From contig NW_027590142.1 of assembly GCF_964213995.1 (NCBI RefSeq), forward strand, positions 868,001-932,000: a stretch of DNA of 64,000 nucleotides, written 5' to 3'. The notes beneath the pieces were generated by a model. It made no database searches, was not told the origin of the DNA, and saw nothing but the letters and a program-made list of their open reading frames with translations. The first letter of the stretch is position 1. Each line of letters starts with the position of its first letter. The stretch is from Mustelus asterias. Taxonomy: Eukaryota. Made by a program: the position numbers and the translations under genes. Positions 9,127-36,709 of this stretch are shown in pieces.

Positions 9127-11290
9127 AGAACAAAGAACAAAGAAAATTACAGCACAGGAACAGGCCCTTTAGCCCTCCAAGCCTGCACCGACTATGCTGC
9201 CCGACTTAACTAAAATCCCCTACCCTTCCGGGGACCATATCCCTATATTCCCATCCAATTCATGTACTTGTCAAGACGCCCCTTAAAAGTCTCTACCGTG
9301 TCCACTTCCACTACCTCCCCCGGCAACGAGTTCCAGGCACCCATTACTCTCTGTGTAAAAAATCTCCCCCGTACATTGCCTTTAAACATTGCCCCTCGCA
9401 CCTTAAACCTATGCCCCCGAGTAATTGACTCTTCCACCCTGGGAAAAAGCTTCTGACGATCCGCTCTGTCCATGCCTCTCATAATCTTGTAGACTTCTAT
9501 CAGGTCTCCCCTCAACCTCCATCGCTCCAGTGAGAACAAACCAAGTTTCTCTAACCTCTCCTCATAGCTAATGCCCTCCATACCAGGCAACATCCTGGTA
9601 AATCTTTTCTGTACCCTCTCCAAAGCCTCCACATCCTTCTGGTAGTGTGGCGACCAGAATTGAACACTGTATTCCAAGTGCGGCCTAACTAAGGTTCTGT
9701 AAAGCTGCAACATGCCTTGCCAATTTTTAAACTAATACCCCGGCCGATGAAGGCAAGCATGCCGTATGCCTTCTTGAGTACCTTCTCCACCTGCATTGTC
9801 ACTTTCAGTGACCTGAATACCTGTACACCCAGGTCCCTTTGCCTATCAATACTCTTAAGGGTTCTGCCATTTACTGTATATTTCCTATCTGTATTCGACC
9901 TTCCAGAATGCATTACTCTCATTTCTCCAGATTAACCTCCATCAGCCATCTCTACGCCCAAGTCTCCAACTGGTCTATATCCTGCTGTATCCTCTGATGG
10001 CCCTCAGCACTATCCGCAAATCCACCAACCTTTGTGTTGTCCGCAAACCTACTAATCAATCCAGTTATGGTTTACTCCAAATCAATTTTATATATTACAA
10101 ACCAAAGGTACCAGCACTGATCCCTGAGGAACTCCACTTGTCACAACCCTCCATTCAGAAGCGCAGCCTTCCACTGCTACCCTCTGTCTTTCTTTGGCCG
10201 AGCCAGTTTTGTATCCATCTTGCCACCTCACCTCTGCTCCCATGCGACTTCACCTCCTGCACCAGTCTGCCATGTCAGAACCTTTTCAAAGGCCTTACTG
10301 AAGTCCATGTAGACAACATTCACTGCCCTACCCTCATCAATCATCTTCGTCACTTCCTCGAAGAACTCGATCAAGTTCGTGAGACACGACCTCCCCTTCA
10401 CAAAACCATATTGCCTCTCCTGAATACGTCCACTTTTTTCCAAGTGGGAATAAATCCTGTCTCGAAGAATCCTCTCCAATAATTTCCCTACCACTGATGT
10501 AAGGCTCACTGGCCTGTAATTACCTGGATTATTCTTGCTACCCTTCTTAAGCAAAGGAACAACATTGGCTATTCTCCAATCCTCTGGGACCTCCCCTGCA
10601 CTTTAACCTGGTGTTGTTAAACTTCTTACTGTGTTTACCCCAGTCCAACGCCGGCATCTCCACATCATGACCTCCCCTGCAGCCAGTGAGGATACAAAGA
10701 TTTCTCTTAAGGCCCCAGCAATTTCCTCCCTTGCCTCTCTCAGTATTCTGGGGTATATCCCATCAGGTCCTGGGGACTTGTCCACATTAACGTTTCTCAA
10801 GAACCCCAATACCTCCTCCTTTTTGATCTCAATATGACTCAAACTATCTACACATCCTTTCACAGAATCATTATCCACCAAGTCCTTCTCTTTGGTGAAT
10901 ACTGACGCAAAATACGCACTTACTATCTCGCCCATGTCCTCTGGCTCCACGCATAAATTCCCTCCCTTGTCCTTGAGTGGGCCGACCCTCTCCCTGGCTA
11001 CCCTCTTGCTCTTTATGTATGTATAAAAAGCCTTGGGATTTTCCTTAATCCTGTTGGCCAATGCTTTTTTATGACCCTCTTTAGCCCTTCTTACTCCTTG
11101 CTTAAGTTTCTTTCTACCTTCCTTGTATTCCACACTTGCTTCGTGTGTTCCCAGTCTCCTAGCTTTGATAAATACTTCCTTTTTTTCTCTTTGACTTGGC
11201 TCACGATATCTCTCGCTATCCAAGCTTCCCAAAACGTGCCATACTTATCCTTCATCCTTACAGGCATGTGCCTGTCCTGAATCCCTATCA
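9127..11290 (-). mobile_element. CR1 LINE, 5'-truncated and frameshifted
   Basis: ORFs contain NYRPVSLTSVVGK, YMDFSKAF and LVRPHLEY; GAACAAA microsatellite tail. Confidence 0.9.
10601..10668 (+). mobile_element. 68-bp Penelope 3' terminus inserted in CR1, with a 13-bp TSD
   Basis: Matches 36619-36685. Flanked by GACCTCCCCTGCA at 10588-10600 and 10669-10681. Confidence 0.85.
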
Positions 11291-11639
11291 AATTCCTCAA
11301 TGAAAAGATGGGAATGCGATGATACAACCCACTGTACCCCCACTTCCTCAATGAAAAGACGAGGAATGTGATTATGTAACCCAGTGTAATTCCACCTCTT
11401 CAGTGGATAGAATCAAACCGGAAATTGCTTCACTGGCCAGAGAAGGGGAACTATGAGCTCATTAACCTCCCTCTCCCCAAGCAGAGTGTTTGGAAGGGAA
11501 CGGCTCTCAACAATATGAGCTCAGTTGTGAACTGTAGCAAGTGGCTTCTGGTTTACTGGCCACAGATTATAAACTTCCATTATGCTAAACAGTCTATTAA
11601 AAATATATTTACAGAACATAATTTTGCATTTATACGTAC

Positions 11640-12620
11640 ATAGACAAACTATGCACAGACACAAAGACACCCACCCACAATGACACACATACACAAATAA
11701 AGATACGTATACACACACACACACAGACACACACATTCATACAAACAGATACACAAATGCACACATAGGCACACACTTGCACAAACAGGCACAGAAACAA
11801 AGGCATACACACTAACACTCAAATACGTATGCACACGCGCACAGAAACGCACACACATACATGAAAGCACACGCAAACATGCACATACACGAACAGGTAC
11901 ACAGACACACACACACACACACACACAAACACATATATACATATACACAAATACAGAGAGACACACATACATACAGATACGCACAAATACACAAACATAT
12001 ACTCATACAAATACAGGTAGATTAGCACACGTTCACGATGACAGAAATATAAACATAAAGACACACTGTCATAAACATTAATGCCCTTTCATGGACACAC
12101 ATGGTGGTAGATGAACCGAATATACACGGACACAGAAACATACAGATGAACAGGGAGCAAAACGTTCACATGAACACATGTAGACGCAAGCATTAACATA
12201 CTCATACAGAAATAAATTCCATAACACACATTAATAGGCATGGAACCATAAACCCACAACAACACATAGTTTTAAAGAACTATCATCTCTTAAGTTCGTA
12301 CACTAACACACTGACTGACAGGGACAGAAAGGGAAGAAAACATGAATAGACTGGTAGATATGTGTCATGCAAAAGAAGGATCAACAAATAAAGCATGCGT
12401 GAACGCATGCACACGCATGAACAGAGACATCAATAAACATAGACTTCACAAAACAATGCAGTCATAGATACACAATGACAGAAGAATAAAATATGCACAC
12501 AGACACACAAGTACACAAATCAATACGCAGAGGCACATGAGCACGTACATTAACACTCATACACGCAGATTAATTCAAATAGATGCTCATGCACACAATA
12601 CACAAACGCGAAATCTTAAA
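11640..12620. repeat. CA-rich degenerate microsatellite
   Basis: Seen directly. Confidence 0.85.
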
Positions 12621-34074: not shown

Positions 34075-36553
34075 AGTGGGAATTCTGTTCACAAACAGGG
34101 CATAGAAAGACACAAACTCAATTTACAGAATAATGGTTGGAATGTGAATACGGACAGCTAATCAAGTCTTAAAAGTACAAACATTGTGTGTCGAGAGAGC
34201 ATTAAGCCAGGTTAAAGAGATGTGTATTGTCTCCAGACAGGACAGCCAGTGAGACTCTGCAGGTCCAGGCAAGCTGTGGGGATTACAGATAGTGTGGCAT
34301 GAACCCAATATCCCGGTTGAGGCTGTCCTCATGTGTGTGGAACTTGGCTATCAGTTTCTGCTCAGCGACTCTGCGCCGTCGTGTGTCGTGAAGGCCGCCT
34401 TGGAGACTGCTTACCCAAATATCAGAGGCCGAATGCCCGTGACCGCTTAAGTGCTCCCCAACAGGAAGTTTACAGTCTTGCCTGGCGATTGTCGAGCGAT
34501 GTTCATTCATCCGTTGTCGCAGCGTCTGTATGGTTTCCCCAATGTACCATGCCTCGGGACATCCTTTCCTGCAGCGTATCAGGTAGACAACGTTGGCCGA
34601 GTTGCAAACGTATGTACCGTGTACCTGGTGGATGCTGCTCTTACGTGAGATGATAGCATCTGTGTCGATGATCCGGCACGTCTTGCAGAGATTGCTGTGG
34701 TAGGGTTGTATGGTGTCGTGGTCACTATTCTCCTGAAGGCTGGGTAGTTTGCTGCGGACAATGGTCTGTTTGAGGTAGCACCCTCCGTGCTCTCATCCCA
34801 CGTACTGGAGATCTCTACTGCCTCCTGAAGATACACAAGGCAAACACACCCGTCCGTCCCATCGTATCGGGCAATGGGACCCTGTGCGAGAACCTCTCCG
34901 GCTATGTCGAAGACATCCTAAAACCCATTGTACAAAGAACCCCCAGCTTTTGTCGCGACACTACGGGCTTCCTACAGAAATTCGGCACAGATGGAGCAGT
35001 TGAACCAGGAGCGCTCCTCGTCACAGTGGATGTCTCGGCACTCTACACCAGCATCCCCCACGATGATGGCATTGCTGCAACGGCGTCAGTGCTCAGCGCC
35101 GACAACTGCCAGTTTCCAGATGCAATTTTACATCTCATCCGCTTCATCCTGGACCACAATATCTTCACCTTCAACAACCAGTTCTTCATCCAGACACACG
35201 GAACAGCCATGGGGACCAAATTCGCACCTCAATATGCCAACATCTTCATGCACAGGTCCGCACAGGACCTTCAACCGATTTTTCTTCCTTTGGACTCATG
35301 GTGAACAATCACAGAAACAACTCTATGATGGCATCAACAAGTTCCATCCTACCATCAGACTCAGCTTGGACTACTCTCCGGAATCGGTTGCATTCTTGGA
35401 CACACGCATCTCCATTAAGGATGGTCACCTCAGCACCTCACTGTACCGCAAGCCCACGGATAACCTCACGATGCTCCACTTCTCCAGCTTCCACCCTAAA
35501 CACGTTAAAGAAGCCATCCCCTATGGACAAGCCCTCGTATACATAGGATCTACTCGGATGAGGACGATCGCAACAGCCACCTCCAGACGCTGAAAGATGC
35601 CCTCATAAGAACAGGATATGGCGCTCGACTCATCGATCGACAGTTCCGACGTGCCACAGCGAAAAACCGCACCGACCTCCTCAGAAGACAAACACGGGAT
35701 ACGGTGGACAGAGTACCCTTCGTCGTCCAGTCCTTCCCCGAAGCGGAGAAGCTACGGCATCTCCTCCGGAGTCTTCAACATGTCATTGATGAAGACGAAC
35801 ATCTCGCCAAGGCCATCCCCACACCCCCACTTCTTGCCTTCAAACAACCGCGCAACCTCAAACAGGCCATTGTCCGCAACAAACTACCCAGCCTTAGGAG
35901 AACAGTGACCACGACACCACACAACCCTGCCACAGCAACCTCTGCAAGACGTGCCGGATCATCGACACAAATACCCTCATCTCACGTGAGAACACCATCC
36001 ACCAGGTACAGGGTACATATTCTTGCAACTCGGCCAATGTTGTCTACATGATACGCTGCAGGAAAGGATGTCCCGAGGCATGGTACATTGGGGAAACCAT
36101 GCAGACGCTGCGACAACGGATGAATGAACACTGCTCGACAATCACCCGGCAAGTCTGTAAACTTCCTGTTGGGGAGCACTTAAGCGGTCACGGGCATTCG
36201 GCCTCTGATATTCGGGTAAGCGTTCTCCAAGGCGGCCTTCACGACACACGACTGCGCAGAGTCGCTGAGCAGAAACTGATAGCCAAGTTCCAGACATGAG
36301 GACAGCCTCAACCGGGATATTGGGTTCATGCCACACTATCTGTAATCCCCACAGCTTGCCTGAACCTGCAGAGTCTCACTGGCTGTCCTGTCTGGAGACA
36401 ATACACATCTCCTTAACCTGGCATAATGCTCTCTCTACACACATTGTTTGTACTTTTAAGACTTGATTAGCTGTACGTATTCACATTCCAACCATTATTC
36501 TGTAAATTGAGTTTGTGTCTTTCTAAGCCCTGTTTGTGGACAGAATTCCCACT

Positions 36554-36590
36554 CACCTGAAGAAGGAGCTTCAGGCTCCGAAAGCTTGTG
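36554..36590 (+). ncRNA. Minimal hammerhead ribozyme motif in the 3' pLTR
   Basis: CAC-CTGAAGA-AGGAGC-TTCAG-GCTCC-GAAA-GCTT-GTG: CUGANGA/GAAA core, 5-bp stem II and palindromic AAGCTT in place of stem III. Confidence 0.7.
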
Positions 36591-36709
36591 GCTTTTGCTA
36601 CCAAATAAACCTGTTGGACTTTAACCTGGTGTTGTTAAACATCTTCCTGTGTTTCCCCAGTCCAACGTCGGCATCTCCACATCATGACCTCCCCTGGCCA
36701 GAGAGTAAT

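Follow-up and report, generated by a model that had tools for sequence, protein, structure and literature searches.

A stretch of 64,000 nt from Mustelus asterias (assembly GCF_964213995.1, contig NW_027590142.1, positions 868,001 to 932,000, forward strand), referred to here as the window, carries four immunoglobulin constant-domain exons in a row (4609-8385, + strand), the last with a secretory-type tail; the one exon tested against Pfam matches the C1-set domain (E 4e-20). The locus is presumably a shark immunoglobulin M cluster. About 16 kb of the window consists of fragments that we take, following the initial annotation, to be long interspersed nuclear elements (LINEs) of the CR1 type; the names of the short interspersed nuclear elements (SINEs) mentioned below have the same basis. 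Two CR1 copies are interrupted by members of a single Penelope-like element (PLE) family, and the target choice of this family is the subject of the present analysis. The family has inserted independently and repeatedly at two codons of CR1 open reading frame 2 (ORF2), with a geometry common to both, and it is dispersed elsewhere. Along their length both CR1 hosts are homologous to other copies in the ORF2 reverse transcriptase (RT) region, as judged by RVT_1 hits and an 11-copy alignment. Feature coordinates are collected in Table 1.

At the first insertion (site 1) a short PLE tail, 10601-10669, is flanked by direct repeats of 13 bp (10588-10600 and 10669-10681); the duplication becomes the 12-bp ACCTCCCCTGCA if the G is assigned to the element end CATCATG. 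At the second (site 2), a PLE spanning approximately 33980-36686 also ends in CATCATG and is followed by ACCTCCCC, which is found again at 33972-33979. The site 2 duplication can be read as 12 bp, with ACCTCCCCGGTG as the left copy, carrying one mismatch, and a right copy minus two bases; under this reading an odd mismatch at the 5' end of the element disappears. The tail word CTCCACATCAT occurs exactly only at 10658 and 36675 in the window (two of five matches when up to one mismatch is allowed). As the initial annotation had noticed, both insertions are antisense in CR1 ORF2 between the codons for GEV and PEDW, and the 11-copy alignment puts them in the identical column. The annotation also described the hosts as clearly divergent and the insertions as independent, and both statements hold: the hosts share 60.9% identity across 486 aligned columns, the tails share 93% across 73 nt and the 5' ends are unlike, so the insertions postdate the host split. 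The homologous CR1 site is without insertion in four other window copies, at 18768 and 54933, as noted earlier, and at 47524 and 57782, which had been missed. The different flank reported for the fragment at 4040-4160 is real; this fragment is an older relative of the PLE pseudo-long terminal repeat (pLTR), 75% identical, with no duplication seen.

Table 1. Features at the two PLE insertions and at related sites (window coordinates).
Feature	Position	Strand	Evidence or remark
CR1 LINE ORF2 fragment, host 1, 5'-truncated, frameshifted, split between GEV and PEDW	9131..11260	-	RVT_1 E 2e-12
Near half-site CCTCTG (CAGAGG on primer strand), site 1	10581..10586	+	2 nt outside duplication
Left 12-bp target duplication, site 1	10589..10600	+	11-13 bp within junction ambiguity
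5'-truncated PLE pLTR end	10601..10669	+	stops at ORF start codon (CATCATG)
Right 12-bp target duplication, site 1	10670..10681	+	
Far half-site CCAGTGA, site 1	10683..10689	+	2 nt past duplication
CR1 host 2, portion downstream of site	32760..33983	-	
Host 2 CCTCTG	33964..33969		
Left duplication, site 2	33972..33979		reaching 33983 if 12 bp
Inverted 5'-truncated PLE arm: GIY-YIG region and pLTR minus last 35-40 nt	33984..34779	-	hammerhead motif near 34071
PLE RT remnant, 5'-truncated, frameshifted	34780..35590	+	RVT_1 E 1.8e-06, 28.2 bits, cut-off 29.6
PLE endonuclease region: CX4CxxC linker, GIY-YIG with internal CxxxC, RMNEH	35898..36345	+	GIY-YIG 24.5 bits, cut-off 22.6
pLTR of direct arm	36346..36686	+	ends CATCATG
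Minimal hammerhead-like motif in pLTR (CTGAAGA, stem II, GAAA)	36552..36597	+	pattern match only
Right duplication (36687-36696) and far half-site GC-CAGAGA (36697-36704), site 2	36687..36704	+	
SINE in host 2, earlier or later insertion, about 23 nt from PLE junction	36710..37050	-	93-94% to 1546-1903 and 40406-40743
CR1 host 2, portion upstream of site	37058..37340	-	
Empty site A, both half-sites	54926..54949	+	score 11/12, predicted target
Empty site A, weaker variant	18760..18790	+	
Empty site B (second hot spot, NWL..R then RQRV), both half-sites	54529..54552	+	
Empty site B, another CR1 copy	13735..13758	-	
Older pLTR fragment	4040..4160	-	75% identical, flank off-motif

The 2.7-kb copy at site 2 reveals the nature of the element. 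Pfam finds a truncated RVT_1 domain (28.2 bits, below the cut-off of 29.6) and then a GIY-YIG domain (24.5 bits, above the cut-off of 22.6), which is the order of RT and C-terminal GIY-YIG known from endonuclease-bearing (EN+) PLEs; ESM Atlas neighbours scoring 0.96-0.97 carry GIY-YIG. The copy is a head-to-head pair, in which the inverted arm, 33988-34779, is 94.6% identical to 35852-36640 of the direct arm (34780-36686), giving the EN+ arrangement of a pLTR, an inverted 5'-truncated arm and an optional tail at one end. Head-to-head arms are described as the usual PLE layout (PMC8557442). The direct arm has CHSNLCKTC (CX4CxxC) directly before the GIY-YIG motif, and the inverted arm has Tyr for the first Cys. 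A CX2-5CxxC linker marks the Neptune and Nematis clades and is missing in Penelope and Poseidon (PMC8557442). Because this linker motif is found, the element would be filed with Neptune/Nematis, and placement in Penelope/Poseidon, which should have none, was rejected; Neptune is preferred over Nematis solely because vertebrate PLEs are classed as Neptune or Poseidon (10.64898/2026.07.22.740005). A hammerhead core pattern is present at 36557 (+) and 34071 (-), besides four unrelated pattern matches elsewhere in the window; no Rfam match is obtained at E up to 1, and the lowest-energy fold differs from the hammerhead fold (z -1.4). The family is high-copy and dispersed genome-wide, with thousands of family ends per genome in contigs of public sequencing runs. 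Exact tail patterns have no match in metagenome contigs, viral contigs or prokaryote genomes, and an ESM Atlas search with the fusion protein P0031 returned scores all below 0.9.

Further junctions come from fusion proteins, in which a CR1 ORF2 frame is called on into the antisense PLE tail. ENA, JGI and ESM Atlas sets contain such chimeric frames among their predicted proteins, host DNA having been miscalled as genes. In a flank-unbiased search, with candidates picked by tail words alone, 11 candidates were obtained, 10 of them with the tail. Without the query, five of the nine junctions fall at codon 111-112 of a 563-codon reference (site A, which is the site invaded twice in the window) and four at codon 243 (site B, WL..R followed by RQR). 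The chance that two 3-codon windows hold all nine is about 3e-14, or about 3e-10 when seven subfamily-level events are counted; gene-calling bias favours CR1 frames, not single codons. Hosts belong to three CR1 subfamilies at site A and four at site B (the latter subfamilies 60-76% identical); identities among the invaded hosts are 56-64% at site A and 60-78% at site B. There are three different tail starts at site A and four at site B, where cluster members P0028-P0031 show other starts at the same codon, and the target nucleotide is constant. Site A is a recurrent hot spot. The method detects antisense insertions only, an orientation that follows from CAGAGG sitting on the purine-rich CR1 sense strand.

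Two other protein searches bear on these counts. An earlier one, in which 7 of the 11 candidates listed (of 25) had the tail, was excluded from the clustering because its query held site A CR1 words; tail-only proteins would share 11 words with that query, and the lowest listed candidate shared 12. A HMMER search, with a query that included 9 CR1 residues, gave 11 hits: six with the tail (two at site A, one at codon 393, three with other flanks) and five unrelated repeats. Protein P0005 has a 16-codon insertion followed by YTGEV, a peptide that would fit a 12-bp duplication. P0008 and P0009 are CR1 frames that end 1-2 codons past GE(V) with TQ or IQ; they are possibly further site A insertions, since the tail's third antisense frame reads TQ-stop.

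Recurrence in related repeats raises the question of common descent, whether from one chimera, from duplication of the immunoglobulin cluster or through CR1 gene conversion. In its favour, CR1 blocks are duplicated within this immunoglobulin heavy-chain locus (one pair matching at 99.8% along 592 bp, another at 94% along 1.75 kb), and contigs that bridge the tail and site A, described below, could include paralogues of one insertion. Such descent is nevertheless very improbable: the host identities given above for both hot spots contrast with tails that are near 93% identical, and tail starts, lengths and variants differ at the same codon. Descent of all invaded copies from one ancestral chimera, which the initial annotation had named as fatal to its proposal, falls under the same judgement. 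Coincidence is hardly credible at all; with so many family ends per genome and many windows scanned, some shared position could arise by chance, but in independent proteins from other assemblies only this codon and one other recur.

How far the family depends on CR1 can be judged from contigs of four public runs (four of 18 listed), aligned to 10540-10760; their word share of 0.36-0.55 implies that the runs come from relatives or other individuals. After positions 10667-10671, 5,727 contig ends (14 of the listed rows, each of 162-706 contigs) run into mixed flanks, with a consensus agreement of 0.33-0.35. The flank table gives commonest letters only, for 24 listed rows of about 1,000; run depth tables, from which no copy numbers are derivable, served only as ceilings. 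Tail-bearing proteins P0014, P0018, P0033 and P0034 also have non-CR1 flanks. The distribution is therefore unlike that of strictly target-specific elements such as R2 and Tx1L, in which most copies have one flank. Under a strict rule, five of 32 listed contig pieces bridge the tail and site A (13 when at least 16 tail letters are taken), with a rough ceiling of 0.69 for the chance expectation. In four contigs of run X15 the joint is 10636 to 10670, a tail shorter by 33 nt joined to site A. Other contigs switch strand inside the tail at a joint 10632/10668 (nine in X15, two in X1, one in X9); in these, pLTR ends are fused with one another in inverted orientation, maybe by self-insertion.

Sites A and B have a two-part sequence in common. 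On the CR1 sense strand, which is the primer strand, both read (C/T)TG-NN-[12 bp]-NN-CAGAGG; the (C/T)TG stands 16 nt upstream of CAG, the junctions lie about 2 nt before CAGAGG, and the 12-bp centre of the inverted pair is the duplication at site 1. CAGAGG is conserved at five places in the aligned CR1 ORF2 of about 1.7 kb. A TG 17-18 nt upstream is present in 12 of 14 copies at A and B versus 0 of 30 at the other three CAGAGG sites (the CR1 copies are not independent), and those three, which are without the second half, are never hit in fusion proteins. With a symmetric score (half-site CCAGRG, 12-bp spacer) site A ranks 1st and site B 3rd of 1,653 CR1 positions, a ranking unchanged when only uninvaded CR1 copies are used; with spacers of 8-11 and 13-16, B falls to 8th-172nd and A stays in the top 29. 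The invaded sites score 11 and 12 of 12; a score of 11 is reached at only two of the 61,113 other positions in the window, and the empty site A at 54933 is among these two. SINE copies at 1738, 36898 and 56584 hold a site scoring 10/12, which would make them a predicted second repeated hot spot.

The mixed flanks contain a matching signal. Their consensus has C-C-A-(G) at 13-16 nt past the junction, the expected place of the far half-site. The most frequent base is C at offset 14 in nine of the 14 listed rows and at offset 13 in seven, and outside offsets 12-15 in one of 280 cells; G at offsets 16-19 fills 20 of 56 cells versus 12 of 280 elsewhere (both hand counts over listed rows). The offset of the C signal is constant across junction positions. 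Rows at 10669 and 10671 may be tinted by element read-through; in the six rows at 10667-10668, which are not read-through, C fills 8 of 12 cells versus 0 of 132. Fisher tests on these cells assume independence and are indicative only. Taken with the recurrence in CR1, it is highly likely that the PLE has some real sequence preference.

The initial annotation offered a different kind of preference, namely a family that has specialised in CR1, uses it as a safe haven, reads ACCTCCCC and disables the LINE. Site A holds both of the window's young copies, all nine flank-unbiased fusions are in CR1 (where gene calling of long open frames selects CR1), and a CR1-restricted subfamily within the larger family is conceivable. 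The 5,727 mixed-flank junction contigs in the rows listed and the four proteins with non-CR1 flanks speak against targeting of LINEs as such, and of the ten best-scoring other motif sites in the window (score of at least 10) four are in CR1 and six outside it. As a target word ACCTCCCC fails because the sequence common to both hot spots lies outside the duplication: ACCTCCCC forms the spacer that becomes duplicated, a different spacer occurs at the second hot spot, and of 11 window matches four are the two duplications and the other seven are empty. Nor is inactivation of CR1 supported, both hosts being 5'-truncated relics with frameshifts and stops away from the insertion, although the order of lesions and insertion is undated. 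Specialisation on CR1 is accordingly a quite improbable account of the data.

Recognition could instead be one-sided, with a monomeric nickase that reads CAGAGG and nearby bases 3' of the first nick, a loose second cut and a second half-site that is a coincidence of the codons. At both hot spots conservation is much stronger in the CAGAGG half than in its partner, published PLE duplications differ in length (8-10 bp; PMC3846280), and the far signal is missing in run X9. Such a nickase should also use the three equally conserved CAGAGG sites, which have no hit among 10 fusions (two of them are poorly visible in that frame), and it leaves free the very side on which C-C-A-G appears 13-16 nt into the mixed 3' flanks. 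One-sided reading is on balance unlikely, though it deserves to be kept in mind.

A dimeric nuclease acting on a degenerate spaced inverted target, with the CR1 hot spots as a by-product, is the probable explanation. In its specific form, in which a Neptune-type vertebrate PLE uses a GIY-YIG dimer to read a CTG-N16-CAG core, nicks 12 nt apart and has both ends target-primed symmetrically, the proposal is held with a little more belief than doubt. On the top strand the target would read approximately (C)CTCTG-NN-[12 bp]-NN-CAG(A/T/G), an inverted site of degenerate sequence. A pair of endonuclease units would nick opposite strands, each 2 nt 5' of a CAG half-site, leaving 12-nt 3' overhangs that become the target duplication; a 12-nt stagger as a rule, like the nick positions, the dimer and a role of the zinc finger in the linker, is inferred. 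The nick beside the stronger half-site would prime reverse transcription within the pLTR-ORF junction, wherever 1-2 nt match the primer end, which could account both for ends scattered about the start codon and for the short form that lies about 33 nt further back. From the second nick an inverted arm, such as 33984-34779, could be primed. Thousands of CR1 copies would then turn two good ORF2 sites into repeated hot spots; ORF2 has two because Leu/Trp codons supply a TG that is suitably spaced from a conserved CAGAGG.

The priming step touches on a further possibility, that primer-template microhomology, or repair at fragile or structured DNA, selects the sites and the endonuclease has little preference. 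The first letters after the tail are the element's own sequence continuing (ATG-GC.. or ATG-AC..), which leaves uneven ends near the start codon; at the junction described by the initial annotation, AC matches template and target alike. In addition, the CR1 strand is purine-rich, and P0008 and P0009 break 1-2 codons past GE(V). The matches are, however, just 1-2 nt long and vary among events at one site, whereas the target nucleotide is fixed, and the common motif lies outside the primer end; selection by microhomology or fragility is thus improbable.

Several results weigh against a dimer on a two-part site. Run X9 has no C at offsets 13-14 in any of its three rows, and flank agreement is only 0.33-0.35. 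The third CR1 junction, at codon 393 (P0013), ranks 309th; site F ranks 4th and has none of 10 fusions; the 2nd-ranked site, between LWE and ARE, is unseen among the fusions; the 54933 site is empty despite its score of 11; and the old fragment at 4040-4160 is off-motif. Frame-1 fusions predicted at two other CAGAGG sites (D and E) did not appear, both hits obtained being non-CR1, so that either the one-word model was wrong or the test too weak. The two-half model was devised after this failed prediction and with the flank table already known, which means that the flank test was not blind; there is also some circularity in the scoring, whose half-site and spacer were taken from the same data. 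The 12-bp length rests on three duplications, two of them inferred. The fusion proteins are on short contigs, mostly with a tail variant unlike that of the window, and may come from related species or subfamilies. Lastly, the Poseidon element of Anolis carolinensis (PAc) prefers ATT in vitro and needs no homology to the cleaved DNA in order to start (PMC11167929), which is at odds with the microhomology step.

PAc is also among the closest parallels: it cuts and extends both strands, has two internal starts and is predicted to be a dimer (PMC11167929). It differs from the shark PLE in belonging to a clade without the linker zinc finger, in preferring ATT within A+T-rich DNA and in starting about 111-118 nt inside the ORF with no target homology, whereas the shark element ends at the start codon and about 33 nt earlier. 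Linker-bearing Neptune and Nematis elements have a reported bias to microsatellites such as (TA)n (PMC8557442), in contrast to the G+C-containing spaced inverted site, non-repetitive DNA and clean duplication seen here. Known PLE biases otherwise concern A+T-rich DNA (PMC11167929) and, for nuclease-less spike-moss elements, 28S rDNA (PMC8557442). The spike-moss PLE-X recurs at one nucleotide of a multicopy sequence, as the shark PLE does, but it is without GIY-YIG and confined to one locus, while the shark element has a nuclease and is dispersed (PMC8557442).

The Xenopus element Tx1L uses an apurinic/apyrimidinic endonuclease (APE). It is strictly target-specific, whereas CR1 makes up a minority of the shark PLE's targets and has two hot spots. 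Targeting of Tx1D transposons by Tx1L and Tourist-in-Tourist insertions are known cases in which one mobile element recurs at a single spot in another (PMC6719617). The GIY-YIG nuclease I-TevI offers an analogy only: its zinc-finger linker acts as a ruler for the distance from recognition to cut, and it is a monomer with a 38-bp site and two cuts 2 nt apart (PMC2988022). PMC12602865 and 10.64898/2026.07.22.740005 contributed no PLE target data, and a search of open-licence full text (Repbase and subscription papers being outside its scope) found no report of a spaced inverted PLE target or of PLE hot spots in shark CR1.

The proposal bears on PLE target choice, second-strand cutting and head-to-head formation. 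The CX2-5CxxC linker has long been hypothesised to be a targeting module (PMC8557442), and ATT is the only preference of the one PLE examined in full-length form in vitro (PMC11167929). If correct, the site proposed here would be, within the literature searched, the first recognition sequence outside microsatellites to be defined for a PLE that bears an endonuclease, and one model, readable from many thousands of copies, would explain both head-to-head arms and duplication. Because the family is high-copy, its two-part site readable and its stagger fixed under the model, the ideas of a dimer and of a targeting zinc finger could be tested directly. Loci at which the same CR1 codon has been hit repeatedly are also unsafe as markers of shared ancestry, and such insertions can give rise to false chimeric repeat families.

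Other features of the window may be noted briefly. The SINE at 36710-37050 lies just past the far half-site of site 2. The CR1 fragments at 17405-19165 (-) and 47083-48870 (+) are open for 586-595 codons through the RT to the stop, which points to young subfamilies. CR1 3' ends at 28629-29220 and 51475-52065 are the 99.8% identical pair of 592 bp and represent either very recent insertions or a local duplication. An intact intronless ORF at 37612-38643 (+) encodes a seven-transmembrane receptor of 343 aa (7tm_1, E 8e-31); at 23038-23900 (+) there is a disrupted paralogue that is 70% alike. An assembly gap of 142 N occupies 31089-31230.

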